A stretch of DNA of 41,789 nucleotides from Bilabrum cf. latius. Its lineage: Eukaryota. The position numbers and the translations under genes are program-made. The stretch covers positions 496,001 through 537,789 of the forward strand of contig OZ237776.1 of the NCBI GenBank assembly GCA_965178125.1, in the 5' to 3' direction. Below, in pieces: positions 4,089 through 40,691 of the stretch. A model generated the notes under the pieces. It saw only the letters and a program-made list of their open reading frames with translations, searched no databases and was not told where the DNA came from. The stretch's first letter is position 1, and every line of letters begins with the position of its first letter.

Positions 4089-4282
4089 AATCAGTATGCT
4101 TCAACTCAACCCACCAGGTCCCTTGCGGCCTTGCCACGGTCGCCCACCCCAACAATCAGTATGCTTCAACTCAACCCACCAGGTCCCTTGCGGCCTTGCC
4201 ACGGTCGCCCACCCCAACAATCAGTATGCTTCAACTCAACCCACCAGGTCCCTTGCGGCCTTGCCACGGTCACCCACCCCAA
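4089..4282. repeat. 65-bp tandem repeat, about 3 near-identical copies
   Basis: TCAGTATGCTTCAACTCAACCCACCAGG... recurs at 4091, 4156 and 4221. It overlaps the last codons and the TGA of the large minus-strand gene. Confidence 0.95.
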
Positions 4283-17546: not shown

Positions 17547-17691
17547 CTTTCACTAGTTGTCCTTAAGATGCGTTGGGGAGGGCCGATGCCGCAGCCAACT
17601 CCAAGGTTCGCTGGGGTTCTCTCCGAACTAAGCACATCTAAACGCGGCGCAACGAAGACTTCAAAAAGCATTCAAGCAATATAAAACGTCG

Positions 17692-18113
17692 CCCACACAC
17701 CTTCGACCCATGCAGCCATCCGCGGCCCTCGCCGCACATCTCGACACACCCTCGCCTTACCCTAACCCTAACCTATGCAGCCATCCGCGACCCTCGCCAC
17801 ACATCGGCCGCACACCCTCGCCCCTTGCAGCCATCCGCGGCCCTCGCCACACATCGGCCGCACATCCTCGACCCATGCAGCCATCCGCGGCCCTCGCCAC
17901 ACATCGGCCGCACACCCTCGCCCCTTGCAGCCATCCGCGGCCCTCGCCACACATCGGCCGCACACCCTCGCCCCTTGCAGCCATCCGCGGCCCTCGCCAC
18001 ACATCGGCCGCACACCCTCGCCCCATGCAGCCATCCGCGGCCCTCGCCACACATCGGCCGCACACTCTCGCCCCTTGCAGCCATCCGCGACCCTCGCCAC
18101 ACATCGGCCGCAC
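17692..18113. repeat. Subtelomeric 50-bp C-rich minisatellite (~8 copies)
   Basis: TGCAGCCATCC anchors at 17711, 17777, 17827, 17877, 17927, 17977, 18027, 18077. Runs directly into TTAGGG. Confidence 0.95.
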
Positions 18114-18114
18114 T

Positions 18115-19308
18115 TTAGGGTTAGGGTTAGGGTTAGGGTTAGGGTTAGGGTTAGGGTTAGGGTTAGGGTTAGGGTTAGGGTTAGGGTTAGGGTTAGGGTT
18201 AGGGTTAGGGTTAGGGTTAGGGTTAGGGTTAGGGTTAGGGTTAGGGTTAGGGTTAGGGTTAGGGTTAGGGTTAGGGTTAGGGTTAGGGTTAGGGTTAGGG
18301 TTAGGGTTAGGGTTAGGGTTAGGGTTAGGGTTAGGGTTAGGGTTAGGGTTAGGGTTAGGGTTAGGGTTAGGGTTAGGGTTAGGGTTAGGGTTAGGGTTAG
18401 GGTTAGGGTTAGGGTTAGGGTTAGGGTTAGGGTTAGGGTTAGGGTTAGGGTTAGGGTTAGGGTTAGGGTTAGGGTTAGGGTTAGGGTTAGGGTTAGGGTT
18501 AGGGTTAGGGTTAGGGTTAGGGTTAGGGTTAGGGTTAGGGTTAGGGTTAGGGTTAGGGTTAGGGTTAGGGTTAGGGTTAGGGTTAGGGTTAGGGTTAGGG
18601 TTAGGGTTAGGGTTAGGGTTAGGGTTAGGGTTAGGGTTAGGGTTAGGGTTAGGGTTAGGGTTAGGGTTAGGGTTAGGGTTAGGGTTAGGGTTAGGGTTAG
18701 GGTTAGGGTTAGGGTTAGGGTTAGGGTTAGGGTTAGGGTTAGGGTTAGGGTTAGGGTTAGGGTTAGGGTTAGGGTTAGGGTTAGGGTTAGGGTTAGGGTT
18801 AGGGTTAGGGTTAGGGTTAGGGTTAGGGTTAGGGTTAGGGTTAGGGTTAGGGTTAGGGTTAGGGTTAGGGTTAGGGTTAGGGTTAGGGTTAGGGTTAGGG
18901 TTAGGGTTAGGGTTAGGGTTAGGGTTAGGGTTAGGGTTAGGGTTAGGGTTAGGGTTAGGGTTAGGGTTAGGGTTAGGGTTAGGGTTAGGGTTAGGGTTAG
19001 GGTTAGGGTTAGGGTTAGGGTTAGGGTTAGGGTTAGGGTTAGGGTTAGGGTTAGGGTTAGGGTTAGGGTTAGGGTTAGGGTTAGGGTTAGGGTTAGGGTT
19101 AGGGTTAGGGTTAGGGTTAGGGTTAGGGTTAGGGTTAGGGTTAGGGTTAGGGTTAGGGTTAGGGTTAGGGTTAGGGTTAGGGTTAGGGTTAGGGTTAGGG
19201 TTAGGGTTAGGGTTAGGGTTAGGGTTAGGGTTAGGGTTAGGGTTAGGGTTAGGGTTAGGGTTAGGGTTAGGGTTAGGGTTAGGGTTAGGGTTAGGGTTAG
19301 GGTTAGGG
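18115..19308 (+). repeat. Telomeric tract, 199 perfect TTAGGG repeats
   Basis: Uninterrupted (TTAGGG)n, G-rich strand pointing rightward, as expected for a right chromosome end. Confidence 0.98.
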
Positions 19309-19369
19309 TATCTAATATAAAGTCAGGGACAGGGTCGGGGAAAAAAAATTTTCATCTTCACTTTTTGTC
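19309..19369 (+). other. 61-bp unique leader of the telomeric unit (first of 11 copies)
   Basis: TATCTAATATAAAGTCAGGGACAGGGTCGGGGAAAAAAAATTTTCATCTTCACTTTTTGTC, the same at every telomere-to-satellite junction. Confidence 0.9.
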
Positions 19370-20626
19370 GAAAAAATGCGCGCGACGATCTCGGCAACCA
19401 GATGAGATATGAGGACCGTTCAAACTGCATCGGGACGGCCTGGGGGTACAATGTTGGGCAAATGTTCCCCAGGTTCCGTTTTGACCGCGCGGCGACAATA
19501 TGGCTGGACGAAGATTGTCATGCAGAAAAAATGCGCGCGACGATCTCGGCAACCAGATGAGATATGAAGACCGTTCAAACTGCATCGGGACGGCCTGGGG
19601 GTACAATGTGGGGCAAATGTTCCCCAGGTTCCGTTTTGACCGCGCGGCGACAATATGGCTGGACGAAGATTGTCATGCAGAAAAAATGCGCGCGACGATC
19701 TCGGCAACCAGATGAGATATGAAGACCGTTCAAACTGCATCGGGACGGCCTGGGACCACAACAGGGGGCAAATGTTCCCCAGGTTCCGTTTTGACCGCGC
19801 GGCGACAATATGGCTGGACGAAGATTGTCATGCAGAAAAAATGCGCGCGACGATCTCGGCAACCAGATGAGATATGAAGACCGTTCAAACTGCATCGGGA
19901 CGGCCTGGGGGTACAATGTGGGGCAAATGTTCCCCAGGTTCCGTTTTGACCGCGCGGCGACAATATGGCTGGACGAAGATTGTCATGCAGAAAAAATGCG
20001 CGCGACGATCTCGGCAACCAGATGAGATATGAAGACCGTTCAAACTGCATCGGGACGGCCTGGGGGTACAATGTGGGGCAAATGTTCCCCAGGTTCCGTT
20101 TTGACCGCGCGGCGACAATATGGCTGGACGAAGATTGTCATGCAGAAAAAATGCGCGCGACGATCTCGGCAACCAGATGAGATATGACGACGATCTCGGC
20201 AACCAGATGAGATATGAAGACCGTTCAAACTGCATCGGGACGGCCTGGGGGTACAATGTGGGGCAAATGTTCCCCAGGTTCCGTTTTGACCGCGCGGCGA
20301 CAATATGGCTGGACGAAGATTGTCATGCAGAAAAAATGCGCGCGACGATCTCGGCAACCAGATGAGATATGAAGACCGTTCAAACTGCATCGGGACGGCC
20401 TGGGGGTACAATGTGGGGCAAATGTTCCCCAGGTTCCGTTTTGACCGCGCGGCGACAATATGGCTGGACGAAGATTGTCATGCAGAAAAAATGCGCGCGA
20501 CGATCTCGGCAACCAGATGAGATATGAAGACCGTTCAAACTGCATCGGGACGGCCTGGGGGTACAATGTGGGGCAAATGTTCCCCAGGTTCCGTTTTGAC
20601 CGCGCGGCGACAATATGGCTGGACGA

Positions 20627-20631
<5 letters not shown>
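19370..20631 (+). repeat. 155-bp satellite block, 8 monomers (first of 11 blocks; last monomer truncated into TTAGGG)
   Basis: Monomers start at 19370, 19525, 19680, 19835, 19990, 20145 (+30-bp duplication), 20330, 20485. Monomer 1 and monomer 3 carry diagnostic variants in every unit. Confidence 0.97.
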
Positions 20632-20670
<39 letters not shown>

Positions 20671-22681
20671 GGTTAGGGTTAGGGTTAGGGTTAGGGTTAG
20701 GGTTAGGGTTAGGGTTAGGGTTAGGGTTAGGGTTAGGGTTAGGGTTAGGGTTAGGGTTAGGGTTAGGGTTAGGGTTAGGGTTAGGGTTAGGGTTAGGGTT
20801 AGGGTTAGGGTTTTAGGTTAGGGTTAGGGTTAGGGTTAGGGTTAGGGTTAGGGTTAGGGTTAGGGTTAGGGTTAGGGTTAGGGTTAGGGTTAGGGTTAGG
20901 GTTAGGGTTAGGGTTAGGGTTAGGGTTAGGGTTAGGGTTAGGGTTAGGGTTAGGGTTAGGGTTAGGGTTAGGGTTAGGGTTAGGGTTAGGGTTAGGGTTA
21001 GGGTTAGGGTTAGGGTTAGGGTTAGGGTTAGGGTTAGGGTTAGGGTTAGGGTTAGGGTTAGGGTTAGGGTTAGGGTTAGGGTTAGGGTTAGGGTTAGGGT
21101 TAGGGTTAGGGTTAGGGTTAGGGTTAGGGTTAGGGTTAGGGTTAGGGTTAGGGTTAGGGTTAGGGTTAGGGTTAGGGTTAGGGTTAGGGTTAGGGTTAGG
21201 GTTAGGGTTAGGGTTAGGGTTAGGGTTAGGGTTAGGGTTAGGGTTAGGGTTAGGGTTAGGGTTAGGGTTAGGGTTAGGGTTAGGGTTAGGGTTAGGGTTA
21301 GGGTTAGGGTTAGGGTTAGGGTTAGGGTTAGGGTTAGGGTTAGGGTTAGGGTTAGGGTTAGGGTTAGGGTTAGGGTTAGGGTTAGGGTTAGGGTATCTAA
21401 TATAAAGTCAGGGACAGGGTCGGGGAAAAAAAATTTTCATCTTCACTTTTTGTCGAAAAAATGCGCGCGACGATCTCGGCAACCAGATGAGATATGAGGA
21501 CCGTTCAAACTGCATCGGGACGGCCTGGGGGTACAATGTTGGGCAAATGTTCCCCAGGTTCCGTTTTGACCGCGCGGCGACAATATGGCTGGACGAAGAT
21601 TGTCATGCAGAAAAAATGCGCGCGACGATCTCGGCAACCAGATGAGATATGAAGACCGTTCAAACTGCATCGGGACGGCCTGGGGGTACAATGTGGGGCA
21701 AATGTTCCCCAGGTTCCGTTTTGACCGCGCGGCGACAATATGGCTGGACGAAGATTGTCATGCAGAAAAAATGCGCGCGACGATCTCGGCAACCAGATGA
21801 GATATGAAGACCGTTCAAACTGCATCGGGACGGCCTGGGACCACAACAGGGGGCAAATGTTCCCCAGGTTCCGTTTTGACCGCGCGGCGACAATATGGCT
21901 GGACGAAGATTGTCATGCAGAAAAAATGCGCGCGACGATCTCGGCAACCAGATGAGATATGAAGACCGTTCAAACTGCATCGGGACGGCCTGGGGGTACA
22001 ATGTGGGGCAAATGTTCCCCAGGTTCCGTTTTGACCGCGCGGCGACAATATGGCTGGACGAAGATTGTCATGCAGAAAAAATGCGCGCGACGATCTCGGC
22101 AACCAGATGAGATATGAAGACCGTTCAAACTGCATCGGGACGGCCTGGGGGTACAATGTGGGGCAAATGTTCCCCAGGTTCCGTTTTGACCGCGCGGCGA
22201 CAATATGGCTGGACGAAGATTGTCATGCAGAAAAAATGCGCGCGACGATCTCGGCAACCAGATGAGATATGAAGACCGTTCAAACTGCATCGGGACGGCC
22301 TGGGGGTACAATGTGGGGCAAATGTTCCCCAGGTTCCGTTTTGACCGCGCGGCGACAATATGGCTGGACGAAGATTGTCATGCAGAAAAAATGCGCGCGA
22401 CGATCTCGGCAACCAGATGAGATATGAAGACCGTTCAAACTGCATCGGGACGGCCTGGGGGTACAATGTGGGGCAAATGTTCCCCAGGTTCCGTTTTGAC
22501 CGCGCGGCGACAATATGGCTGGACGAAGATTGTCATGCAGAAAAAATGCGCGCGACGATCTCGGCAACCAGATGAGATATGAAGACCGTTCAAACTGCAT
22601 CGGGACGGCCTGGGGGTACAATGTGGGGCAAATGTTCCCCAGGTTCCGTTTTGACCGCGCGGCGACAATATGGCTGGACGA

Positions 22682-22725
<44 letters not shown>

Positions 22726-24724
22726 GGTTAGGGTTAGGGTTAGGGTTAGGGTTAGGGTTAGGGTTAGGGTTAGGGTTAGGGTTAGGGTTAGGGTTAGGGT
22801 TAGGGTTAGGGTTAGGGTTAGGGTTAGGGTTAGGGTTAGGGTTAGGGTTAGGGTTAGGGTTTTAGGTTAGGGTTAGGGTTAGGGTTAGGGTTAGGGTTAG
22901 GGTTAGGGTTAGGGTTAGGGTTAGGGTTAGGGTTAGGGTTAGGGTTAGGGTTAGGGTTAGGGTTAGGGTTAGGGTTAGGGTTAGGGTTAGGGTTAGGGTT
23001 AGGGTTAGGGTTAGGGTTAGGGTTAGGGTTAGGGTTAGGGTTAGGGTTAGGGTTAGGGTTAGGGTTAGGGTTAGGGTTAGGGTTAGGGTTAGGGTTAGGG
23101 TTAGGGTTAGGGTTAGGGTTAGGGTTAGGGTTAGGGTTAGGGTTAGGGTTAGGGTTAGGGTTAGGGTTAGGGTTAGGGTTAGGGTTAGGGTTAGGGTTAG
23201 GGTTAGGGTTAGGGTTAGGGTTAGGGTTAGGGTTAGGGTTAGGGTTAGGGTTAGGGTTAGGGTTAGGGTTAGGGTTAGGGTTAGGGTTAGGGTTAGGGTT
23301 AGGGTTAGGGTTAGGGTTAGGGTTAGGGTTAGGGTTAGGGTTAGGGTTAGGGTTAGGGTTAGGGTTAGGGTTAGGGTTAGGGTTAGGGTTAGGGTTAGGG
23401 TTAGGGTTAGGGTTAGGGTTAGGGTTAGGGTATCTAATATAAAGTCAGGGACAGGGTCGGGGAAAAAAAATTTTCATCTTCACTTTTTGTCGAAAAAATG
23501 CGCGCGACGATCTCGGCAACCAGATGAGATATGAGGACCGTTCAAACTGCATCGGGACGGCCTGGGGGTACAATGTTGGGCAAATGTTCCCCAGGTTCCG
23601 TTTTGACCGCGCGGCGACAATATGGCTGGACGAAGATTGTCATGCAGAAAAAATGCGCGCGACGATCTCGGCAACCAGATGAGATATGAAGACCGTTCAA
23701 ACTGCATCGGGACGGCCTGGGGGTACAATGTGGGGCAAATGTTCCCCAGGTTCCGTTTTGACCGCGCGGCGACAATATGGCTGGACGAAGATTGTCATGC
23801 AGAAAAAATGCGCGCGACGATCTCGGCAACCAGATGAGATATGAAGACCGTTCAAACTGCATCGGGACGGCCTGGGACCACAACAGGGGGCAAATGTTCC
23901 CCAGGTTCCGTTTTGACCGCGCGGCGACAATATGGCTGGACGAAGATTGTCATGCAGAAAAAATGCGCGCGACGATCTCGGCAACCAGATGAGATATGAA
24001 GACCGTTCAAACTGCATCGGGACGGCCTGGGGGTACAATGTGGGGCAAATGTTCCCCAGGTTCCGGTTCCGTTTTGACCGCGCGGCGACAATATGGCTGG
24101 ACGAAGATTGTCATGCAGAAAAAATGCGCGCGACGATCTCGGCAACCAGATGAGATATGAAGACCGTTCAAACTGCATCGGGACGGCCTGGGGGTACAAT
24201 GTGGGGCAAATGTTCCCCAGGTTCCGTTTTGACCGCGCGGCGACAATATGGCTGGACGAAGATTGTCATGCAGAAAAAATGCGCGCGACGATCTCGGCAA
24301 CCAGATGAGATATGAAGACCGTTCAAACTGCATCGGGACGGCCTGGGGGTACAATGTGGGGCAAATGTTCCCCAGGTTCCGTTTTGACCGCGCGGCGACA
24401 ATATGGCTGGACGAAGATTGTCATGCAGAAAAAATGCGCGCGACGATCTCGGCAACCAGATGAGATATGAAGACCGTTCAAACTGCATCGGGACGGCCTG
24501 GGGGTACAATGTGGGGCAAATGTTCCCCAGGTTCCGTTTTGACCGCGCGGCGACAATATGGCTGGACGAAGATTGTCATGCAGAAAAAATGCGCGCGACG
24601 ATCTCGGCAACCAGATGAGATATGAAGACCGTTCAAACTGCATCGGGACGGCCTGGGGGTACAATGTGGGGCAAATGTTCCCCAGGTTCCGTTTTGACCG
24701 CGCGGCGACAATATGGCTGGACGA

Positions 24725-24768
<44 letters not shown>

Positions 24769-26581
24769 GGTTAGGGTTAGGGTTAGGGTTAGGGTTAGGG
24801 TTAGGGTTAGGGTTAGGGTTAGGGTTAGGGTTAGGGTTAGGGTTAGGGTTAGGGTTAGGGTTAGGGTTAGGGTTAGGGTTAGGGTTAGGGTTAGGGTTAG
24901 GGTTAGGGTTAGGGTTTTAGGTTAGGGTTAGGGTTAGGGTTAGGGTTAGGGTTAGGGTTAGGGTTAGGGTTAGGGTTAGGGTTAGGGTTAGGGTTAGGGT
25001 TAGGGTTAGGGTTAGGGTTAGGGTTAGGGTTAGGGTTAGGGTTAGGGTTAGGGTTAGGGTTAGGGTTAGGGTTAGGGTTAGGGTTAGGGTTAGGGTTAGG
25101 GTTAGGGTTAGGGTTAGGGTTAGGGTTAGGGTTAGGGTTAGGGTTAGGGTTAGGGTTAGGGTTAGGGTTAGGGTTAGGGTTAGGGTTAGGGTTAGGGTTA
25201 GGGTTAGGGTTAGGGTTAGGGTTAGGGTTAGGGTTAGGGTTAGGGTTAGGGTTAGGGTTAGGGTTAGGGTTAGGGTTAGGGTTAGGGTATCTAATATAAA
25301 GTCAGGGACAGGGTCGGGGAAAAAAAATTTTCATCTTCACTTTTTGTCGAAAAAATGCGCGCGACGATCTCGGCAACCAGATGAGATATGAGGACCGTTC
25401 AAACTGCATCGGGACGGCCTGGGGGTACAATGTTGGGCAAATGTTCCCCAGGTTCCGTTTTGACCGCGCGGCGACAATATGGCTGGACGAAGATTGTCAT
25501 GCAGAAAAAATGCGCGCGACGATCTCGGCAACCAGATGAGATATGAAGACCGTTCAAACTGCATCGGGACGGCCTGGGGGTACAATGTGGGGCAAATGTT
25601 CCCCAGGTTCCGTTTTGACCGCGCGGCGACAATATGGCTGGACGAAGATTGTCATGCAGAAAAAATGCGCGCGACGATCTCGGCAACCAGATGAGATATG
25701 AAGACCGTTCAAACTGCATCGGGACGGCCTGGGACCACAACAGGGGGCAAATGTTCCCCAGGTTCCGTTTTGACCGCGCGGTATGGCTGGACGAAGATTG
25801 TCATGCAGAAAAAATGCGCGCGACGATCTCGGCAACCAGATGAGATATGAAGACCGTTCAAACTGCATCGGGACGGCCTGGGGGTACAATGTGGGGCAAA
25901 TGTTCCCCAGGTTCCGTTTTGACCGCGCGGCGACAATATGGCTGGACGAAGATTGTCATGCAGAAAAAATGCGCGAAAAAATGCGCGCGACGATCTCGGC
26001 AACCAGATGAGATATGAAGACCGTTCAAACTGCATCGGGACGGCCTGGGGGTACAATGTGGGGCAAATGTTCCCCAGGTTCCGTTTTGACCGCGCGGCGA
26101 CAATATGGCTGGACGAAGATTGTCATGCAGAAAAAATGCGCGCGACGATCTCGGCAACCAGATGAGATATGAAGACCGTTCAAACTGCATCGGGACGGCC
26201 TGGGGGTACAATGTGGGGCAAATGTTCCCCAGGTTCCGTTTTGACCGCGCGGCGACAATATGGCTGGACGAAGATTGTCATGCAGAAAAAATGCGCGCGA
26301 CGATCTCGGCAACCAGATGAGATATGAAGACCGTTCAAACTGCATCGGGACGGCCTGGGGGTACAATGTGGGGCAAATGTTCCCCAGGTTCCGTTTTGAC
26401 CGCGCGGCGACAATATGGCTGGACGAAGATTGTCATGCAGAAAAAATGCGCGCGACGATCTCGGCAACCAGATGAGATATGAAGACCGTTCAAACTGCAT
26501 CGGGACGGCCTGGGGGTACAATGTGGGGCAAATGTTCCCCAGGTTCCGTTTTGACCGCGCGGCGACAATATGGCTGGACGA

Positions 26582-26625
<44 letters not shown>

Positions 26626-28426
26626 GGTTAGGGTTAGGGTTAGGGTTAGGGTTAGGGTTAGGGTTAGGGTTAGGGTTAGGGTTAGGGTTAGGGTTAGGGT
26701 TAGGGTTAGGGTTAGGGTTAGGGTTAGGGTTAGGGTTAGGGTTAGGGTTAGGGTTAGGGTTAGGGTTAGGGTTTTAGGTTAGGGTTAGGGTTAGGGTTAG
26801 GGTTAGGGTTAGGGTTAGGGTTAGGGTTAGGGTTAGGGTTAGGGTTAGGGTTAGGGTTAGGGTTAGGGTTAGGGTTAGGGTTAGGGTTAGGGTTAGGGTT
26901 AGGGTTAGGGTTAGGGTTAGGGTTAGGGTTAGGGTTAGGGTTAGGGTTAGGGTTAGGGTTAGGGTTAGGGTTAGGGTTAGGGTTAGGGTTAGGGTTAGGG
27001 TTAGGGTTAGGGTTAGGGTTAGGGTTAGGGTTAGGGTTAGGGTTAGGGTTAGGGTTAGGGTTAGGGTTAGGGTTAGGGTTAGGGTTAGGGTTAGGGTTAG
27101 GGTTAGGGTTAGGGTTAGGGTTAGGGTTAGGGTTAGGGTATCTAATATAAAGTCAGGGACAGGGTCGGGGAAAAAAAATTTTCATCTTCACTTTTTGTCG
27201 AAAAAATGCGCGCGACGATCTCGGCAACCAGATGAGATATGAGGACCGTTCAAACTGCATCGGGACGGCCTGGGGGTACAATGTTGGGCAAATGTTCCCC
27301 AGGTTCCGTTTTGACCGCGCGGCGACAATATGGCTGGACGAAGATTGTCATGCAGAAAAAATGCGCGCGACGATCTCGGCAACCAGATGAGATATGAAGA
27401 CCGTTCAAACTGCATCGGGACGGCCTGGGGGTACAATGTGGGGCAAATGTTCCCCAGGTTCCGTTTTGACCGCGCGGCGACAATATGGCTGGACGAAGAT
27501 TGTCATGCAGAAAAAATGCGCGCGACGATCTCGGCAACCAGATGAGATATGAAGACCGTTCAAACTGCATCGGGACGGCCTGGGACCACAACAGGGGGCA
27601 AATGTTCCCCAGGTTCCGTTTTGACCGCGCGGCGACAATATGGCTGGACGAAGATTGTCATGCAGAAAAAATGCGCGCGACGATCTCGGCAACCAGATGA
27701 GATATGAAGACCGTTCAAACTGCATCGGGACGGCCTGGGGGTACAATGTGGGGCAAATGTTCCCCAGGTTCCGTTTTGACCGCGCGGCGACAATATGGCT
27801 GGACGAAGATTGTCATGCAGAAAAAATGCGCGCGACGATCTCGGCAACCAGATGAGATATGAAGACCGTTCAAACTGCATCGGGACGGCCTGGGGGTACA
27901 ATGTGGGGCAAATGTTCCCCAGGTTCCGTTTTGACCGCGCGGCGACAATATGGCTGGACGAAGATTGTCATGCAGAAAAAATGCGCGCGACGATCTCGGC
28001 AACCAGATGAGATATGAAGACCGTTCAAACTGCATCGGGACGGCCTGGGGGTACAATGTGGGGCAAATGTTCCCCAGGTTCCGTTTTGACCGCGCGGCGA
28101 CAATATGGCTGGACGAAGATTGTCATGCAGAAAAAATGCGCGCGACGATCTCGGCAACCAGATGAGATATGAAGACCGTTCAAACTGCATCGGGACGGCC
28201 TGGGGGTACAATGTGGGGCAAATGTTCCCCAGGTTCCGTTTTGACCGCGCGGCGACAATATGGCTGGACGAAGATTGTCATGCAGAAAAAATGCGCGCGA
28301 CGATCTCGGCAACCAGATGAGATATGAAGACCGTTCAAACTGCATCGGGACGGCCTGGGGGTACAATGTGGGGCAAATGTTCCCCAGGTTCCGTTTTGAC
28401 CGCGCGGCGACAATATGGCTGGACGA

Positions 28427-28470
<44 letters not shown>

Positions 28471-30277
28471 GGTTAGGGTTAGGGTTAGGGTTAGGGTTAG
28501 GGTTAGGGTTAGGGTTAGGGTTAGGGTTAGGGTTAGGGTTAGGGTTAGGGTTAGGGTTAGGGTTAGGGTTAGGGTTAGGGTTAGGGTTAGGGTTAGGGTT
28601 AGGGTTAGGGTTAGGGTTTTAGGTTAGGGTTAGGGTTAGGGTTAGGGTTAGGGTTAGGGTTAGGGTTAGGGTTAGGGTTAGGGTTAGGGTTAGGGTTAGG
28701 GTTAGGGTTAGGGTTAGGGTTAGGGTTAGGGTTAGGGTTAGGGTTAGGGTTAGGGTTAGGGTTAGGGTTAGGGTTAGGGTTAGGGTTAGGGTTAGGGTTA
28801 GGGTTAGGGTTAGGGTTAGGGTTAGGGTTAGGGTTAGGGTTAGGGTTAGGGTTAGGGTTAGGGTTAGGGTTAGGGTTAGGGTTAGGGTTAGGGTTAGGGT
28901 TAGGGTTAGGGTTAGGGTTAGGGTTAGGGTTAGGGTTAGGGTTAGGGTTAGGGTTAGGGTTAGGGTTAGGGTTAGGGTTAGGGTTAGGGTATCTAATATA
29001 AAGTCAGGGACAGGGTCGGGGAAAAAAAATTTTCATCTTCACTTTTTGTCGAAAAAATGCGCGCGACGATCTCGGCAACCAGATGAGATATGAGGACCGT
29101 TCAAACTGCATCGGGACGGCCTGGGGGTACAATGTTGGGCAAATGTTCCCCAGGTTCCGTTTTGACCGCGCGGCGACAATATGGCTGGACGAAGATTGTC
29201 ATGCAGAAAAAATGCGCGCGACGATCTCGGCAACCAGATGAGATATGAAGACCGTTCAAACTGCATCGGGACGGCCTGGGGGTACAATGTGGGGCAAATG
29301 TTCCCCAGGTTCCGTTTTGACCGCGCGGCGACAATATGGCTGGACGAAGATTGTCATGCAGAAAAAATGCGCGCGACGATCTCGGCAACCAGATGAGATA
29401 TGAAGACCGTTCAAACTGCATCGGGACGGCCTGGGACCACAACAGGGGGCAAATGTTCCCCAGGTTCCGTTTTGACCGCGCGGCGACAATATGGCTGGAC
29501 GAAGATTGTCATGCAGAAAAAATGCGCGCGACGATCTCGGCAACCAGATGAGATATGAAGACCGTTCAAACTGCATCGGGACGGCCTGGGGGTACAATGT
29601 GGGGCAAATGTTCCCCAGGTTCCGTTTTGACCGCGCGGCGACAATATGGCTGGACGAAGATTGTCATGCAGAAAAAATGCGCGCGACGATCTCGGCAACC
29701 AGATGAGATATGAAGACCGTTCAAACTGCATCGGGACGGCCTGGGGGTACAATGTGGGGCAAATGTTCCCCAGGTTCCGTTTTGACCGCGCGGCGACAAT
29801 ATGGCTGGACGAAGATTGTCATGCAGAAAAAATGCGCGCGACGATCTCGGCAACCAGATGAGATATGAAGACCGTTCAAACTGCATCGGGACGGCCTGGG
29901 GGTACAATGTGGGGCAAATGTTCCCCAGGTTCCGTTTTGACCGCGCGGCGACAATATGGCTGGACGAAGATTGTCATGCAGAAAAAATGCGCGCGACGAT
30001 CTCGGCAACCAGATGAGATATGAAGACCGTTCAAACTGCATCGGGACGGCCTGGGGGTACAATGTGGGGCAAATGTTCCCCAGGTTCCGTTTTGACCGCG
30101 CGGCGACAATATGGCTGGACGAAGATTGTCATGCAGAAAAAATGCGCGCGACGATCTCGGCAACCAGATGAGATATGAAGACCGTTCAAACTGCATCGGG
30201 ACGGCCTGGGGGTACAATGTGGGGCAAATGTTCCCCAGGTTCCGTTTTGACCGCGCGGCGACAATATGGCTGGACGA

Positions 30278-30321
<44 letters not shown>

Positions 30322-32128
30322 GGTTAGGGTTAGGGTTAGGGTTAGGGTTAGGGTTAGGGTTAGGGTTAGGGTTAGGGTTAGGGTTAGGGTTAGGGTTAGG
30401 GTTAGGGTTAGGGTTAGGGTTAGGGTTAGGGTTAGGGTTAGGGTTAGGGTTAGGGTTAGGGTTAGGGTTTTAGGTTAGGGTTAGGGTTAGGGTTAGGGTT
30501 AGGGTTAGGGTTAGGGTTAGGGTTAGGGTTAGGGTTAGGGTTAGGGTTAGGGTTAGGGTTAGGGTTAGGGTTAGGGTTAGGGTTAGGGTTAGGGTTAGGG
30601 TTAGGGTTAGGGTTAGGGTTAGGGTTAGGGTTAGGGTTAGGGTTAGGGTTAGGGTTAGGGTTAGGGTTAGGGTTAGGGTTAGGGTTAGGGTTAGGGTTAG
30701 GGTTAGGGTTAGGGTTAGGGTTAGGGTTAGGGTTAGGGTTAGGGTTAGGGTTAGGGTTAGGGTTAGGGTTAGGGTTAGGGTTAGGGTTAGGGTTAGGGTT
30801 AGGGTTAGGGTTAGGGTTAGGGTTAGGGTTAGGGTTAGGGTATCTAATATAAAGTCAGGGACAGGGTCGGGGAAAAAAAATTTTCATCTTCACTTTTTGT
30901 CGAAAAAATGCGCGCGACGATCTCGGCAACCAGATGAGATATGAGGACCGTTCAAACTGCATCGGGACGGCCTGGGGGTACAATGTTGGGCAAATGTTCC
31001 CCAGGTTCCGTTTTGACCGCGCGGCGACAATATGGCTGGACGAAGATTGTCATGCAGAAAAAATGCGCGCGACGATCTCGGCAACCAGATGAGATATGAA
31101 GACCGTTCAAACTGCATCGGGACGGCCTGGGGGTACAATGTGGGGCAAATGTTCCCCAGGTTCCGTTTTGACCGCGCGGCGACAATATGGCTGGACGAAG
31201 ATTGTCATGCAGAAAAAATGCGCGCGACGATCTCGGCAACCAGATGAGATATGAAGACCGTTCAAACTGCATCGGGACGGCCTGGGACCACAACAGGGGG
31301 CAAATGTTCCCCAGGTTCCGTTTTGACCGCGCGGCGACAATATGGCTGGACGAAGATTGTCATGCAGAAAAAATGCGCGCGACGATCTCGGCAACCAGAT
31401 GAGATATGAAGACCGTTCAAACTGCATCGGGACGGCCTGGGGGTACAATGTGGGGCAAATGTTCCCCAGGTTCCGTTTTGACCGCGCGGCGACAATATGG
31501 CTGGACGAAGATTGTCATGCAGAAAAAATGCGCGCGACGATCTCGGCAACCAGATGAGATATGAAGACCGTTCAAACTGCATCGGGACGGCCTGGGGGTA
31601 CAATGTGGGGCAAATGTTCCCCAGGTTCCGTTTTGACCGCGCGGCGACAATATGGCTGGACGAAGATTGTCATGCAGAAAAAATGCGCGCGACGATCTCG
31701 GCAACCAGATGAGATATGAAGACCGTTCAAACTGCATCGGGACGGCCTGGGGGTACAATGTGGGGCAAATGTTCCCCAGGTTCCGTTTTGACCGCGCGGC
31801 GACAATATGGCTGGACGAAGATTGTCATGCAGAAAAAATGCGCGCGACGATCTCGGCAACCAGATGAGATATGAAGACCGTTCAAACTGCATCGGGACGG
31901 CCTGGGGGTACAATGTGGGGCAAATGTTCCCCAGGTTCCGTTTTGACCGCGCGGCGACAATATGGCTGGACGAAGATTGTCATGCAGAAAAAATGCGCGC
32001 GACGATCTCGGCAACCAGATGAGATATGAAGACCGTTCAAACTGCATCGGGACGGCCTGGGGGTACAATGTGGGGCAAATGTTCCCCAGGTTCCGTTTTG
32101 ACCGCGCGGCGACAATATGGCTGGACGA

Positions 32129-32172
<44 letters not shown>

Positions 32173-33979
32173 GGTTAGGGTTAGGGTTAGGGTTAGGGTT
32201 AGGGTTAGGGTTAGGGTTAGGGTTAGGGTTAGGGTTAGGGTTAGGGTTAGGGTTAGGGTTAGGGTTAGGGTTAGGGTTAGGGTTAGGGTTAGGGTTAGGG
32301 TTAGGGTTAGGGTTAGGGTTTTAGGTTAGGGTTAGGGTTAGGGTTAGGGTTAGGGTTAGGGTTAGGGTTAGGGTTAGGGTTAGGGTTAGGGTTAGGGTTA
32401 GGGTTAGGGTTAGGGTTAGGGTTAGGGTTAGGGTTAGGGTTAGGGTTAGGGTTAGGGTTAGGGTTAGGGTTAGGGTTAGGGTTAGGGTTAGGGTTAGGGT
32501 TAGGGTTAGGGTTAGGGTTAGGGTTAGGGTTAGGGTTAGGGTTAGGGTTAGGGTTAGGGTTAGGGTTAGGGTTAGGGTTAGGGTTAGGGTTAGGGTTAGG
32601 GTTAGGGTTAGGGTTAGGGTTAGGGTTAGGGTTAGGGTTAGGGTTAGGGTTAGGGTTAGGGTTAGGGTTAGGGTTAGGGTTAGGGTTAGGGTATCTAATA
32701 TAAAGTCAGGGACAGGGTCGGGGAAAAAAAATTTTCATCTTCACTTTTTGTCGAAAAAATGCGCGCGACGATCTCGGCAACCAGATGAGATATGAGGACC
32801 GTTCAAACTGCATCGGGACGGCCTGGGGGTACAATGTTGGGCAAATGTTCCCCAGGTTCCGTTTTGACCGCGCGGCGACAATATGGCTGGACGAAGATTG
32901 TCATGCAGAAAAAATGCGCGCGACGATCTCGGCAACCAGATGAGATATGAAGACCGTTCAAACTGCATCGGGACGGCCTGGGGGTACAATGTGGGGCAAA
33001 TGTTCCCCAGGTTCCGTTTTGACCGCGCGGCGACAATATGGCTGGACGAAGATTGTCATGCAGAAAAAATGCGCGCGACGATCTCGGCAACCAGATGAGA
33101 TATGAAGACCGTTCAAACTGCATCGGGACGGCCTGGGACCACAACAGGGGGCAAATGTTCCCCAGGTTCCGTTTTGACCGCGCGGCGACAATATGGCTGG
33201 ACGAAGATTGTCATGCAGAAAAAATGCGCGCGACGATCTCGGCAACCAGATGAGATATGAAGACCGTTCAAACTGCATCGGGACGGCCTGGGGGTACAAT
33301 GTGGGGCAAATGTTCCCCAGGTTCCGTTTTGACCGCGCGGCGACAATATGGCTGGACGAAGATTGTCATGCAGAAAAAATGCGCGCGACGATCTCGGCAA
33401 CCAGATGAGATATGAAGACCGTTCAAACTGCATCGGGACGGCCTGGGGGTACAATGTGGGGCAAATGTTCCCCAGGTTCCGTTTTGACCGCGCGGCGACA
33501 ATATGGCTGGACGAAGATTGTCATGCAGAAAAAATGCGCGCGACGATCTCGGCAACCAGATGAGATATGAAGACCGTTCAAACTGCATCGGGACGGCCTG
33601 GGGGTACAATGTGGGGCAAATGTTCCCCAGGTTCCGTTTTGACCGCGCGGCGACAATATGGCTGGACGAAGATTGTCATGCAGAAAAAATGCGCGCGACG
33701 ATCTCGGCAACCAGATGAGATATGAAGACCGTTCAAACTGCATCGGGACGGCCTGGGGGTACAATGTGGGGCAAATGTTCCCCAGGTTCCGTTTTGACCG
33801 CGCGGCGACAATATGGCTGGACGAAGATTGTCATGCAGAAAAAATGCGCGCGACGATCTCGGCAACCAGATGAGATATGAAGACCGTTCAAACTGCATCG
33901 GGACGGCCTGGGGGTACAATGTGGGGCAAATGTTCCCCAGGTTCCGTTTTGACCGCGCGGCGACAATATGGCTGGACGA

Positions 33980-34023
<44 letters not shown>

Positions 34024-35818
34024 GGTTAGGGTTAGGGTTAGGGTTAGGGTTAGGGTTAGGGTTAGGGTTAGGGTTAGGGTTAGGGTTAGGGTTAGGGTTA
34101 GGGTTAGGGTTAGGGTTAGGGTTAGGGTTAGGGTTAGGGTTAGGGTTAGGGTTAGGGTTAGGGTTAGGGTTTTAGGTTAGGGTTAGGGTTAGGGTTAGGG
34201 TTAGGGTTAGGGTTAGGGTTAGGGTTAGGGTTAGGGTTAGGGTTAGGGTTAGGGTTAGGGTTAGGGTTAGGGTTAGGGTTAGGGTTAGGGTTAGGGTTAG
34301 GGTTAGGGTTAGGGTTAGGGTTAGGGTTAGGGTTAGGGTTAGGGTTAGGGTTAGGGTTAGGGTTAGGGTTAGGGTTAGGGTTAGGGTTAGGGTTAGGGTT
34401 AGGGTTAGGGTTAGGGTTAGGGTTAGGGTTAGGGTTAGGGTTAGGGTTAGGGTTAGGGTTAGGGTTAGGGTTAGGGTTAGGGTTAGGGTTAGGGTTAGGG
34501 TTAGGGTTAGGGTTAGGGTTAGGGTTAGGGTATCTAATATAAAGTCAGGGACAGGGTCGGGGAAAAAAAATTTTCATCTTCACTTTTTGTCGAAAAAATG
34601 CGCGCGACGATCTCGGCAACCAGATGAGATATGAGGACCGTTCAAACTGCATCGGGACGGCCTGGGGGTACAATGTTGGGCAAATGTTCCCCAGGTTCCG
34701 TTTTGACCGCGCGGCGACAATATGGCTGGACGAAGATTGTCATGCAGAAAAAATGCGCGCGACGATCTCGGCAACCAGATGAGATATGAAGACCGTTCAA
34801 ACTGCATCGGGACGGCCTGGGGGTACAATGTGGGGCAAATGTTCCCCAGGTTCCGTTTTGACCGCGCGGCGACAATATGGCTGGACGAAGATTGTCATGC
34901 AGAAAAAATGCGCGCGACGATCTCGGCAACCAGATGAGATATGAAGACCGTTCAAACTGCATCGGGACGGCCTGGGACCACAACAGGGGGCAAATGTTCC
35001 CCAGGTTCCGTTTTGACCGCGCGGCGACAATATGGCTGGACGAAGATTGTCATGCAGAAAAAATGCGCGCGACGATCTCGGCAACCAGATGAGATATGAA
35101 GACCGTTCAAACTGCATCGGGACGGCCTGGGGGTACAATGTGGGGCAAATGTTCCCCAGGTTCCGTTTTGACCGCGCGGCGACAATATGGCTGGACGAAG
35201 ATTGTCATGCAGAAAAAATGCGCGCGACGATCTCGGCAACCAGATGAGATATGAAGACCGTTCAAACTGCATCGGGACGGCCTGGGGGTACAATGTGGGG
35301 CAAATGTTCCCCAGGTTCCGTTTTGACCGCGCGGCGACAATATGGCTGGACGAAGATTGTCATGCAGAAAAAATGCGCGCGACGATCTCGGCAACCAGAT
35401 GAGATATGAAGACCGTTCAAACTGCATCGGGACGGCCTGGGGGTACAATGTGGGGCAAATGTTCCCCAGGTTCCGTTTTGACCGCGCGGCGACAATATGG
35501 CTGGACGAAGATTGTCATGCAGAAAAAATGCGCGCGACGATCTCGGCAACCAGATGAGATATGAAGACCGTTCAAACTGCATCGGGACGGCCTGGGGGTA
35601 CAATGTGGGGCAAATGTTCCCCAGGTTCCGTTTTGACCGCGCGGCGACAATATGGCTGGACGAAGATTGTCATGCAGAAAAAATGCGCGCGACGATCTCG
35701 GCAACCAGATGAGATATGAAGACCGTTCAAACTGCATCGGGACGGCCTGGGGGTACAATGTGGGGCAAATGTTCCCCAGGTTCCGTTTTGACCGCGCGGC
35801 GACAATATGGCTGGACGA

Positions 35819-35862
<44 letters not shown>

Positions 35863-37675
35863 GGTTAGGGTTAGGGTTAGGGTTAGGGTTAGGGTTAGGG
35901 TTAGGGTTAGGGTTAGGGTTAGGGTTAGGGTTAGGGTTAGGGTTAGGGTTAGGGTTAGGGTTAGGGTTAGGGTTAGGGTTAGGGTTAGGGTTAGGGTTAG
36001 GGTTAGGGTTTTAGGTTAGGGTTAGGGTTAGGGTTAGGGTTAGGGTTAGGGTTAGGGTTAGGGTTAGGGTTAGGGTTAGGGTTAGGGTTAGGGTTAGGGT
36101 TAGGGTTAGGGTTAGGGTTAGGGTTAGGGTTAGGGTTAGGGTTAGGGTTAGGGTTAGGGTTAGGGTTAGGGTTAGGGTTAGGGTTAGGGTTAGGGTTAGG
36201 GTTAGGGTTAGGGTTAGGGTTAGGGTTAGGGTTAGGGTTAGGGTTAGGGTTAGGGTTAGGGTTAGGGTTAGGGTTAGGGTTAGGGTTAGGGTTAGGGTTA
36301 GGGTTAGGGTTAGGGTTAGGGTTAGGGTTAGGGTTAGGGTTAGGGTTAGGGTTAGGGTTAGGGTTAGGGTTAGGGTTAGGGTTAGGGTATCTAATATAAA
36401 GTCAGGGACAGGGTCGGGGAAAAAAAATTTTCATCTTCACTTTTTGTCGAAAAAATGCGCGCGACGATCTCGGCAACCAGATGAGATATGAGGACCGTTC
36501 AAACTGCATCGGGACGGCCTGGGGGTACAATGTTGGGCAAATGTTCCCCAGGTTCCGTTTTGACCGCGCGGCGACAATATGGCTGGACGAAGATTGTCAT
36601 GCAGAAAAAATGCGCGCGACGATCTCGGCAACCAGATGAGATATGAAGACCGTTCAAACTGCATCGGGACGGCCTGGGGGTACAATGTGGGGCAAATGTT
36701 CCCCAGGTTCCGTTTTGACCGCGCGGCGACAATATGGCTGGACGAAGATTGTCATGCAGAAAAAATGCGCGCGACGATCTCGGCAACCAGATGAGATATG
36801 AAGACCGTTCAAACTGCATCGGGACGGCCTGGGACCACAACAGGGGGCAAATGTTCCCCAGGTTCCGTTTTGACCGCGCGGCGACAATATGGCTGGACGA
36901 AGATTGTCATGCAGAAAAAATGCGCGCGACGATCTCGGCAACCAGATGAGATATGAAGACCGTTCAAACTGCATCGGGACGGCCTGGGGGTACAATGTGG
37001 GGCAAATGTTCCCCAGGTTCCGTTTTGACCGCGCGGCGACAATATGGCTGGACGAAGATTGTCATGCAGAAAAAATGCGCGCGACGATCTCGGCAACCAG
37101 ATGAGATATGAAGACCGTTCAAACTGCATCGGGACGGCCTGGGGGTACAATGTGGGGCAAATGTTCCCCAGGTTCCGTTTTGACCGCGCGGCGACAATAT
37201 GGCTGGACGAAGATTGTCATGCAGAAAAAATGCGCGCGACGATCTCGGCAACCAGATGAGATATGAAGACCGTTCAAACTGCATCGGGACGGCCTGGGGG
37301 TACAATGTGGGGCAAATGTTCCCCAGGTTCCGTTTTGACCGCGCGGCGACAATATGGCTGGACGAAGATTGTCATGCAGAAAAAATGCGCGCGACGATCT
37401 CGGCAACCAGATGAGATATGAAGACCGTTCAAACTGCATCGGGACGGCCTGGGGGTACAATGTGGGGCAAATGTTCCCCAGGTTCCGTTTTGACCGCGCG
37501 GCGACAATATGGCTGGACGAAGATTGTCATGCAGAAAAAATGCGCGCGACGATCTCGGCAACCAGATGAGATATGAAGACCGTTCAAACTGCATCGGGAC
37601 GGCCTGGGGGTACAATGTGGGGCAAATGTTCCCCAGGTTCCGTTTTGACCGCGCGGCGACAATATGGCTGGACGA

Positions 37676-37719
<44 letters not shown>

Positions 37720-39538
37720 GGTTAGGGTTAGGGTTAGGGTTAGGGTTAGGGTTAGGGTTAGGGTTAGGGTTAGGGTTAGGGTTAGGGTTAGGGTTAGGGT
37801 TAGGGTTAGGGTTAGGGTTAGGGTTAGGGTTAGGGTTAGGGTTAGGGTTAGGGTTAGGGTTAGGGTTTTAGGTTAGGGTTAGGGTTAGGGTTAGGGTTAG
37901 GGTTAGGGTTAGGGTTAGGGTTAGGGTTAGGGTTAGGGTTAGGGTTAGGGTTAGGGTTAGGGTTAGGGTTAGGGTTAGGGTTAGGGTTAGGGTTAGGGTT
38001 AGGGTTAGGGTTAGGGTTAGGGTTAGGGTTAGGGTTAGGGTTAGGGTTAGGGTTAGGGTTAGGGTTAGGGTTAGGGTTAGGGTTAGGGTTAGGGTTAGGG
38101 TTAGGGTTAGGGTTAGGGTTAGGGTTAGGGTTAGGGTTAGGGTTAGGGTTAGGGTTAGGGTTAGGGTTAGGGTTAGGGTTAGGGTTAGGGTTAGGGTTAG
38201 GGTTAGGGTTAGGGTTAGGGTTAGGGTTAGGGTTAGGGTTAGGGTTAGGGTATCTAATATAAAGTCAGGGACAGGGTCGGGGAAAAAAAATTTTCATCTT
38301 CACTTTTTGTCGAAAAAATGCGCGCGACGATCTCGGCAACCAGATGAGATATGAGGACCGTTCAAACTGCATCGGGACGGCCTGGGGGTACAATGTTGGG
38401 CAAATGTTCCCCAGGTTCCGTTTTGACCGCGCGGCGACAATATGGCTGGACGAAGATTGTCATGCAGAAAAAATGCGCGCGACGATCTCGGCAACCAGAT
38501 GAGATATGAAGACCGTTCAAACTGCATCGGGACGGCCTGGGGGTACAATGTGGGGCAAATGTTCCCCAGGTTCCGTTTTGACCGCGCGGCGACAATATGG
38601 CTGGACGAAGATTGTCATGCAGAAAAAATGCGCGCGACGATCTCGGCAACCAGATGAGATATGAAGACCGTTCAAACTGCATCGGGACGGCCTGGGACCA
38701 CAACAGGGGGCAAATGTTCCCCAGGTTCCGTTTTGACCGCGCGGCGACAATATGGCTGGACGAAGATTGTCATGCAGAAAAAATGCGCGCGACGATCTCG
38801 GCAACCAGATGAGATATGAAGACCGTTCAAACTGCATCGGGACGGCCTGGGGGTACAATGTGGGGCAAATGTTCCCCAGGTTCCGTTTTGACCGCGCGGC
38901 GACAATATGGCTGGACGAAGATTGTCATGCAGAAAAAATGCGCGCGACGATCTCGGCAACCAGATGAGATATGAAGACCGTTCAAACTGCATCGGGACGG
39001 CCTGGGGGTACAATGTGGGGCAAATGTTCCCCAGGTTCCGTTTTGACCGCGCGGCGACAATATGGCTGGACGAAGATTGTCATGCAGAAAAAATGCGCGC
39101 GACGATCTCGGCAACCAGATGAGATATGAAGACCGTTCAAACTGCATCGGGACGGCCTGGGGGTACAATGTGGGGCAAATGTTCCCCAGGTTCCGTTTTG
39201 ACCGCGCGGCGACAATATGGCTGGACGAAGATTGTCATGCAGAAAAAATGCGCGCGACGATCTCGGCAACCAGATGAGATATGAAGACCGTTCAAACTGC
39301 ATCGGGACGGCCTGGGGGTACAATGTGGGGCAAATGTTCCCCAGGTTCCGTTTTGACCGCGCGGCGACAATATGGCTGGACGAAGATTGTCATGCAGAAA
39401 AAATGCGCGCGACGATCTCGGCAACCAGATGAGATATGAAGACCGTTCAAACTGCATCGGGACGGCCTGGGGGTACAATGTGGGGCAAATGTTCCCCAGG
39501 TTCCGTTTTGACCGCGCGGCGACAATATGGCTGGACGA

Positions 39539-39582
<44 letters not shown>

Positions 39583-39779
39583 GGTTAGGGTTAGGGTTAG
39601 GGTTAGGGTTAGGGTTAGGGTTAGGGTTAGGGTTAGGGTTAGGGTTAGGGTTAGGGTTAGGGTTAGCGCAGGTGTGGGGGGCAACTGTCGGGATTTGGAT
39701 ATTTGAAAAAGCAAAGAGGGGTGCCGTTGCGTTTTTCTGGCCTGTGCCGGGCTTGGTGGGCAGGGTGCGAGGGCGCAAT

Positions 39780-39786
39780 GAGGAGG
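39780..39786 (+). promoter_or_regulatory. Shine-Dalgarno sequence
   Basis: GAGGAGG 5 nt upstream of ATG 39792. Confidence 0.8.
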
Positions 39787-39791
39787 GGACG

Positions 39792-40562
39792 ATGGAACGG
39801 GTTGTGGTCGAGATCGAGGCGGGGGTCGCGCAAGTGCGCCTGAACCGTCCTGACAAGAAGAACGCGGTGGATATTGCCATGGCCGAAGCGATTGTCGCGG
39901 CGGGGCAGGGCCTGCGCGACGCGGATATTCGCGCGGTGGTGCTGTCGGGGGCAGGGGGCGCGTTTTGTGCGGGCCTCGATGTGATGAGTTTCGCGCAACT
40001 GGCCCAACCGGACATGCTGGCGCGGTTCATGGCGCGCAGCCATGACGACTGTAATCTGATGCAAGAGGTCGCGATGATCTGGCAGCGGCTCGACGTGCCG
40101 GTGATCGCGGCCTTGCAGGGGGTGGCCTATGGCGCCGGGTTTCAGATGGCGCTGGGCGCGGATATTCGGATCGCGGCCCCGGACACGAAGCTGGCGATCA
40201 TGGAGATGAAATGGGGGCTGATCCCCGATATGGGCGGGATGGTGTTGCTGCCACGCCTGACGCGGTCGGACGTTATTCGGCGCATGACCTATACCGCGCG
40301 GCCCATTGATGGGGAGCAGGCCGAACGCTGGGGGCTGGTAACGGAGCTTGCCGAAGATTCGGTTGCGGCGGCCACGCAGATGGCGGCAGAGATCGCTGGC
40401 AAAGGGCCGAACGCGATCAAGGCCGCCAAGCGCCTGATCGGACTGGCCGAGACGGCGGGGCGCGCGGAGGTATTGCTGGCTGAGAGCGCCGAGCAAAAGG
40501 CCCTGATCGGGCAGGCCGAGCAGATGGGCATCATCGCGGCCAATATGGCGCGCGGGGGCTGA
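39792..40562 (+). CDS. Bacterial enoyl-CoA hydratase/isomerase (crotonase family), 256 aa
   Basis: LNRPDKKNA, AFCAGLD, PVIAALQGVAYGAG, MEMKWGLIPDMGG motifs; SD-supported start; no introns. Confidence 0.92.
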   Translation: MERVVVEIEAGVAQVRLNRPDKKNAVDIAMAEAIVAAGQGLRDADIRAVVLSGAGGAFCAGLDVMSFAQLAQPDMLARFMARSHDDCNLMQEVAMIWQRLDVPVIAALQGVAYGAGFQMALGADIRIAAPDTKLAIMEMKWGLIPDMGGMVLLPRLTRSDVIRRMTYTARPIDGEQAERWGLVTELAEDSVAAATQMAAEIAGKGPNAIKAAKRLIGLAETAGRAEVLLAESAEQKALIGQAEQMGIIAANMARGG

Positions 40563-40573
40563 GAGAACAGACA

Positions 40574-40608
40574 AAAGCCCCCCAACGTGCTGCCAAGTGG
40601 GGGGCTTT
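40574..40608. terminator. Probable bidirectional rho-independent terminator
   Basis: Perfect 11-bp inverted repeat AAAGCCCCCCA / TGGGGGGCTTT with a 13-nt loop between two convergent bacterial genes. Confidence 0.75.
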
Positions 40609-40691
40609 CAAAAGAGCTTGATCGCGCGTGTCACGATCCGCGCCGAAAGGAAGATGCCTCCGGCGGGGATATTTAGGAAAGCAAAGAGCGG

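Follow-up and report, generated by a model that had tools for sequence, protein, structure and literature searches.

A head-to-tail array of satellite-plus-TTAGGG cassettes behind a telomere tract in a Bilabrum cf. latius contig, a candidate TALT-like extension

Why should a pure telomere tract be followed by eleven copies of a cassette that itself carries a telomere tract, and was such an array made in a cell? The question is raised by a stretch of DNA from the eukaryote Bilabrum cf. latius (assembly GCA_965178125.1, contig OZ237776.1, positions 496,001 to 537,789 of the forward strand), which is called the window here and is 41,789 nucleotides in length at its full extent. A first-pass annotation, made from the letters of the window and a list of its open reading frames (ORFs), described a telomere built from a tandemly amplified satellite-plus-TTAGGG cassette. 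It compared the array with a TALT (template for alternative lengthening of telomeres, ALT), with the Y' arrays of yeast, and with a rolling-circle extension. On the analysis reported here, the observation is largely confirmed and the interpretation is partly supported; an origin in vivo is unproven. The reading favored below, with modest confidence, is that the array may be a TALT-like telomere extension that arose through repeated templated copying of one module.

Architecture of the cassette array

Using Tandem Repeats Finder (TRF) and a direct scan, it was found that 11 cassette units span positions 19310-39666 head-to-tail and that all of them lie on the same strand. Each unit starts with a 61-bp leader, continues with eight 155-bp satellite monomers, and ends with a TTAGGG tract. 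The leader occurs 11 times with 0 mismatches, starting at 19310, 21395, 23432, 25289, 27140, 28991, 30842, 32693, 34532, 36389, and 38252. Units 1 to 10 are 2085, 2037, 1857, 1851, 1851, 1851, 1851, 1839, 1857, and 1863 bp in length, while the truncated unit 11 has 1415 bp. The order of the monomers, B-A-D-A-A-A-A-C, is constant in every unit. Monomers B and D are older sequence variants, and monomer C is a satellite monomer cut at 144 bp. Since the order is fixed, the source of the satellite block was one pre-existing satellite segment.

The joints between the parts are as uniform as the parts. The telomere-to-leader joint has the same phase in all of the 11 units (...TTAGGG-T/ATCTAA..., where the slash marks the joint). 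The satellite-to-telomere joints are all alike and read ...GACGAAGA/TTAGGG; at the same place, an uncut monomer has the sequence ...GACGAAGATTGTCATGCAG. This second joint falls within a monomer, with an overlap of TT, and by its sequence it looks like a de novo telomere addition, probably a healing-like event at a break inside the monomer. As a feature of the sequence, this repeat architecture is real and far beyond chance.

Every leader has degenerate telomere-like hexamers (TCAGGG ACAGGG TCGGGG) and then an A8T4 run. In this respect the leader is reminiscent of an old telomere's degenerate base, and its AT-richness could perhaps suffice for a replication origin.

Are the tracts inside the cassettes ordinary telomere repeats? 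They were compared by run-length coding of the repeats. The telomere of 199 repeats that precedes the array (tract 0) has no variant repeat. In contrast, an extra T after repeat 3 is common to all of the 11 cassette tracts, and a TTTTAGG repeat follows in each of the 10 complete tracts after 26-28 further repeats (27 in unit 1, 26 in unit 2, and 28 in units 3-10). The pure runs distal to this second landmark comprise 96, 94, 61, 60, 61, 61, 61, 59, 62, and 63 repeats in units 1 to 10, respectively. Tract 11 stops at 3+T+17 repeats plus TTAG, which is short of the TTTTAGG landmark. Since the extra T and TTTTAGG are common to the cassette tracts and missing from tract 0, they point to templated copies of one ancestral tract. 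On the evidence of these shared variants, the cassette tracts are to be regarded as copied together with the leader and the satellite and not as independent telomerase products.

The differences among the units are few and of one kind. Substitutions number 0 in the 11 units, and the satellite blocks are identical in eight of them. The only other changes are four slippage-type (tandem) indels, which are confined to units 1, 3, and 4: unit 1 has a private 30-bp tandem duplication (20158-20187), unit 3 has a 6-bp insertion (at 24059), and unit 4 has lost 6 bp at 25781 and gained a 12-bp duplication that ends at 25974. Units 5-7 are each 1851 bp in length and have identical satellites, leaders, and tract patterns. 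Thus, the statement of the first-pass annotation that 11 near-identical units share one orientation and the same junctions is borne out. Unit length is near constant in units 3-10 (1839-1863 bp), and units 1-2 are longer. The tracts accordingly fall into two subfamilies by position in the array, a long-tract one (units 1-2) and a short-tract one (units 3-10), which implies at least two amplification steps.

Templated copying of a subtelomere-plus-telomere module

What was copied, and how? The module is a 'subtelomere plus telomere' unit, consisting of the leader, the eight monomers, and a tract of ~93 repeats that was seeded at a break within a monomer. At least 11 head-to-tail copies of it were added to a TTAGGG tract, variant repeats included. 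The proposed route would begin with a 3' telomeric end that invades the pure distal part of a cassette tract. The template would be either a ~1.85-kb circle, by a rolling-circle or 'roll and spread' process, or an existing array, by break-induced replication. Synthesis would then pass through the leader, the satellite, and the tract again and again, and the small tandem indels would represent copying slippage. Tract 0 would be free of landmarks because the invading end paired with a pure distal run. The near-constant period of units 3-10 favors a template of fixed size. For the longer units 1-2, at least one further step would be needed, which may have been an earlier duplication or the excision of a circle with a shorter tract. 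I infer both the ~1.85-kb circle and a telomerase-independent maintenance from this pattern.

Similar structures have been described. In Caenorhabditis elegans, a TALT is a unique block that lies between telomere sequences of the same orientation and is tandemly integrated into telomeres (PMC4595603). In the array, every unit is bounded by same-strand TTAGGG tracts, which is the structure given in that definition. The mTALT of mouse embryonic stem cells has a unit of 7.4 kb (PMC7889907). As described in these sources, TALT1, TALT2, and mTALT share with the cassette a non-telomeric block, telomere flanks of the same orientation, and tandem reiteration distal to the chromosome end. TALT2 has interstitial telomere sequence on one side and telomere on the other, and the cassette is bounded likewise. 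On the other hand, the block of the TALTs and mTALT is described as unique or genic, whereas that of the cassette is a pure 155-bp satellite, and the cassette has long intervening tracts, of about 0.55 kb, in which variant repeats were copied. Tandem placement distal to the pure tract of 199 repeats holds in the contig; this link crosses 1.2 kb of pure repeat, and the contig is chimeric (see below).

The copying mode has its parallels in yeasts. In Kluyveromyces lactis, 1.6-kb URA3-telomere circles gave rise to telomere extensions of more than 10 kb (PMC2800209). This 'roll and spread' case, as reported there, compares with a unit of 1.85 kb and an extension of 20 kb in the window. Nanopore reads of telomeres in yeast survivors contain odd bases at periodic intervals, which have been described as a signature of indel-prone copying of telomeric circles, or t-circles (PMC13287614). 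By that description, the array has the periodicity of rolling-circle copying: marker bases recur at equal offsets within its telomere sequence. The likeness to K. lactis and to yeast t-circle copying thus lies in these periodic marker bases and in copies that differ by indels. However, the yeast circles were experimentally introduced or consisted of telomere sequence only (units of 88-168 bp), according to the same accounts, and the two subfamilies of the cassette misfit a single constant circle.

The Y' elements of Saccharomyces cerevisiae are 5-7 kb in length, have a helicase-like ORF, and are separated by short TG1-3 tracts. Their arrays, including those of type I survivors, resemble the array in that tandem subtelomeric elements lie in one orientation with telomere-repeat tracts between them. 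The cassette differs from them in that it is non-coding in the ORFs tested and in that its tracts are long. Other precedents are a human ALT line with tandem telomere units of SV40 plus TTAGGG and the HAATI survivors of Schizosaccharomyces pombe, which are laboratory or immortalised cells with a known loss of telomerase. Their likeness is that foreign or non-telomeric DNA is amplified with telomere repeats or instead of them.

Does the cassette encode anything? The first-pass annotation saw no coding capacity, and the searches agree with it. All cassette ORFs are short and generated by the repeats, the longest being 113 aa, and Pfam found 0 families in three unit-5 ORFs (113, 71, and 52 aa; one per recurring type). 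Rfam gave 0 matches at the gathering threshold in the whole window and 0 matches at E<=1 over 27100-28500, which comprises the leader and satellite of unit 5. No tRNAs were found, and the DNA fold of the satellite monomer is unremarkable (z-score of -1.79). No inverted repeats of at least 12 bp were found within a unit, which also has no terminal inverted repeats, and no poly(A) or poly(T) was found at the cassette joints. A 31-base leader probe had 0 matches among bacterial and archaeal genome contigs (a collection without eukaryotes), and a 561-bp cassette probe had no match in plasmid or phage collections. When 19310-20629 (unit 1 outside its telomere tract) was compared with the two flanks, the sole similarities were two 11-bp matches, which are put down to chance. 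The helicase-like ORF that marks a Y'-type element is thus lacking among the cassette ORFs, none of which exceeds 113 aa. In summary, the earlier reading as a TALT/Y'-like or rolling-circle extension gains from the anatomy, from the copied extra T and TTTTAGG, from the near-constant period, and from variation by indels only, while membership among the Y' elements themselves fails at this ORF.

Ordered unidirectional arrays at chromosome ends are also formed by the SART/TRAS, MoTeR, and HeT-A/TART elements, and the first-pass annotation named telomere-targeted elements (SART/TRAS and MoTeR) as a parallel. Might the cassette be a non-autonomous telomere-targeted retroelement of the SART/TRAS, MoTeR, HeT-A, or Athena-like kind, reverse-transcribed onto the G-overhang? 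It has the element-telomere-element arrangement in one orientation, and the telomere-like degenerate hexamers of the leader adjoin the joint. However, the three cassette ORFs that were searched gave neither a reverse-transcriptase domain nor any other from Pfam, and no ORF is large enough for a reverse transcriptase. At the joint where 5' truncation would be expected, all of the 11 units are complete, so that there is no truncation series, and the joints are identical. The proximal joint has neither poly(T) nor poly(A). In addition, the length and landmarks of the internal tract are fixed, terminal inverted repeats are absent, and the body is a plain satellite. On these grounds, a retroelement is very improbable, and the parallel drawn earlier is not supported.

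Does templated copying require a telomere crisis? Traces of TALT-like events have been found in wild nematodes (PMC10760449), so a natural case would not be a new kind of thing, as far as that report goes. The array may instead be a constitutive subtelomeric architecture of a telomerase-positive species, in which arrays lie at many ends and are homogenised by ordinary recombination, with no crisis or ALT. TALT-type blocks and blocks templated by interstitial telomere sequence are reported from wild-type nematodes in the same source, which would support such an architecture. So would the native end, which is otherwise compact and orderly, the start of its last gene (NDK) lying ~570 bp from the telomere. 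On the other hand, the 0 substitutions among 11 units argue for a very recent amplification, and the constitutive alternative is regarded as rather unlikely. The copying mechanism is common to it and to the TALT-like extension favored here; the physiological context alone differs.

Bacterial DNA beyond the array

Does the array extend the chromosome end? According to the first-pass annotation, it extends the end by 20 kb beyond a telomere of 1.2 kb. The array does follow a pure (TTAGGG)199 tract, but it is not the end of the contig's sequence. It was found that the window continues for 2,123 bases beyond position 39666 (39667-41789), all of which are bacterial DNA that the annotation had omitted. 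The sequence from 39665 to 41789 matches a contig of a Dinoroseobacter sp. metagenome-assembled genome (MAG), CBDIHL010000043.1 (positions 8126-6001 of the fetched locus L001), at 99.8% nucleotide identity over 2127 bp. This MAG locus extends 4,970 bases past the breakpoint, with ordinary ORFs. The breakpoint has 2 bp (AG) of microhomology, no adapter, and no filler. There are four differences between the window and the MAG, namely three single-base indels and one substitution. The single-base indels break the reading frames of the MAG, while the frames of the window stay open; thus, the indels are probably errors of the MAG.

A chimeric read or contig is recognized by an abrupt switch to an unrelated organism whose own genome runs on across the point of joining. 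By this sequence evidence, the contig is demonstrably chimeric and has at least one foreign join. The distal join is most likely a chimeric read or an assembly join at a molecule that was broken inside tract 11. If the molecule was broken there, the real array may be longer, and its true terminus is unseen. Because of the bacterial tail, neither a chromosome terminus nor gene transfer should be read from this contig without read-level support.

Could the join be biological? A deprotected, eroded tract may have been end-joined in vivo to a piece of Dinoroseobacter DNA. In favor of such a capture, the junction is a clean one that shows microhomology and no adapter, and the tract is shortened at the joint. 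However, the fragment is nearly identical to a free-living MAG and has intact genes, its start is an arbitrary intergenic position past which the bacterial genome goes on, and no terminal telomere follows the bacterial DNA within the window. Chimeric reads are, in general, far commoner than biological joins. A capture in vivo is therefore hardly to be expected. The full natural scenario, in which ALT-type rolling-circle copying maintains at least one chromosome end of a wild microbial eukaryote from an uncultivated lineage and in vivo end joining also captured the DNA of an associated Dinoroseobacter at the eroded tract, would likewise be an extremely unlikely one. If true, it would provide a TALT in nature, apart from telomerase mutants of the laboratory, and would catch a transfer from bacterium to eukaryote at a dysfunctional telomere.

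Similar short motifs, GGATATTTGAAAAAGCAAAGAGGGG and GGATATTTAGGAAAGCAAAGAGCGG, lie at 39700-39720 and 40670-40690 in the bacterial intergenic regions that flank the hydratase gene of this tail. By their sequences, they may represent a repeated regulatory or REP-like (repetitive extragenic palindromic) element.

Was the array itself made outside the cell? The first-pass annotation cautioned that an in vitro origin, by multiple displacement amplification (MDA) or as a ligation concatemer, must be excluded. This caveat has become the central issue, since the distal joint enters the middle of a Dinoroseobacter genome. A random ligation concatemer was rejected because all of the 11 units have the same orientation and identical joints. 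The other possibilities are a phi29/MDA rolling circle on a small natural circle, template switching through TTAGGG, and a cassette expanded or looped by the assembler, in each of which the real locus would have 0-1 cassette. Such an in vitro or in silico product is a serious alternative, though an unlikely one. It would agree with the foreign junction and its 2-bp microhomology, and both flanking joints of the array lie in or behind simple repeats. The 0 substitutions in 11 units would also result from the polishing of multi-mapped reads. In contrast, the two positional subfamilies (distal runs of 96 and 94 versus 59-63 repeats, proximal runs of 27 and 26 versus 28) and the four indels (6-30 bp) that are private to units 1, 3, and 4 argue against the looping of one graph node. 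Moreover, the bacterial ORFs of the window are unbroken at the sites of the single-base indels in the MAG, which indicates a high consensus quality. Nevertheless, rolling-circle copying of a natural ~1.85-kb circle by phi29 could yield an array like this one.

There is also the possibility that the array is real but comes from elsewhere, such as another chromosome end, an internal locus, or an extrachromosomal multimer, and that it was falsely overlapped with this end within pure TTAGGG. Tract 0 consists of 199 pure repeats without a landmark, so any overlap register would be possible; it is longer than every cassette tract; and one wrong join is already present in the contig. On the other side, no direct evidence favors such an overlap, and the orientation is that expected for a true distal extension. 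A landmark-free hybrid tract is, moreover, what is predicted if a recipient telomere invaded the pure distal run of a donor. I consider an origin elsewhere improbable.

Several points weigh against the TALT-like extension that is favored here. The certain foreign junction to mid-genome bacterial DNA compromises the integrity of the read or the assembly. The only tie between the array and the unique flank is a 1.2-kb stretch of pure TTAGGG, which could hide a false overlap. Units 1-2 hold ~34 more distal repeats than units 3-10, contrary to the prediction of a single constant circle, and where tracts differ by just 1-2 repeats, noise in the consensus could be the reason. Finally, an origin in the cell and an origin in a phi29/MDA reaction are undecidable from the sequence alone.

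Either outcome would be of use. An array present in the cell would be a natural case, resolved at the sequence level, in which a protist or alga extends a telomere by cassettes. Its internal markers (the two copied variant repeats, the two subfamilies, and the slippage indels) would then record the growth of the array, and the case would bear on the evolution of new subtelomeres and even of new telomere types. If the array is an artefact, it would be a warning that non-axenic long-read data can join natural chromosome ends to bacterial DNA and that telomere-containing repeats can be inflated.

The chromosome end before the array

The features of the window are listed in the table below.

Table 1. 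Positions of features in the window (position 1 is the first nucleotide of the window)
Feature	Position	Strand	Evidence or remark
Intron-bearing, GC-rich eukaryotic nuclear DNA	1..17700	-	about 52-69% GC per kb
PP2A B''-like EF-hand ORF	4236-5798	-	Pfam EF-hand_13
Coronin	13990-15633	-	Pfam WD40/WD40_4; Atlas and PDB searches
NDK gene, three exons	17546-17442, about 17219-17134, 17026-16751	-	Pfam NDK, frame analysis
50-bp subtelomeric repeat, 6.8 copies	17776..18113	+	TRF; degenerate copies from near 17703
Native telomere tract, 199 uninterrupted TTAGGG + T, pure	18115..19309	+	TRF, hexamer scan
Units 1-2, 'long-tract' subfamily	19310..23431	+	tracts 3+T+27/26+TTTTAGG+96/94 repeats
Units 3-10, 'short-tract' subfamily	23432..38251	+	tracts 3+T+28+TTTTAGG+59..63 repeats
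Leader of representative unit 5, 61 bp	27140..27200	+	AT-rich, three degenerate G-rich hexamers
Satellite block of unit 5, eight 155-bp monomers, last cut at 144 bp	27201..28429	+	
Internal TTAGGG tract of unit 5, 93 repeats	28430..28990	+	both variant landmarks present
Unit 11, leader and satellite complete, tract truncated	38252..39666	+	
Breakpoint of telomere repeat and bacterial DNA	39665..39667		...GGGTTAG/CGCAGGTG...; alignment, blastn
Dinoroseobacter-type DNA	39667..41789		Pfam, blastn, alignment to MAG locus L001
Enoyl-CoA hydratase	39672-40562	+	Pfam
Hairpin then T run, candidate intrinsic terminator	between enoyl-CoA hydratase and valS		read by eye
valS 3' end	40692-41789	-	Pfam

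On the eukaryotic side, NDK is the last gene before the telomere. Its introns are GT..AG by frame analysis and thus spliceosomal, and they split the Pfam NDK domain, with positions 1-26 on one exon and 56-132 on another. A trypanosomatid origin of this flank, which the long minus-strand ORFs had suggested, was rejected in view of these introns and because close named homologues did not turn up. Since the start codon lies only ~570 bp from the first TTAGGG, this end is almost without a subtelomere, and the genome looks compact. When exon 3 was compared with longer-length proteins only, just 3 mammalian NDKs of fusion length matched. For the coronin, a single Logan protein, P0001, is near-identical (99%), and after it the matches listed drop to ~45% identity. 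The PP2A B'' ORF has 1 match at E<=1e-60, a threshold too strict for distant relatives, and this match is also a near-identical Logan protein (P0121). Among the named genomes of that protein set, the lineage does not seem to be represented, and two Atlas look-ups led no further than 'Eukaryota'. A 65-bp tandem repeat (3.0 copies, 99% identity, 4089-4282) overlaps the 3' end of the same ORF.

Between two units of the 50-bp subtelomeric repeat lies an inverted (CCCTAA)2 block of 12 bp (17760-17771), whose orientation is opposite to that of the terminal tract. Judging from its position and orientation, this block may have been left by an old event at a telomere.

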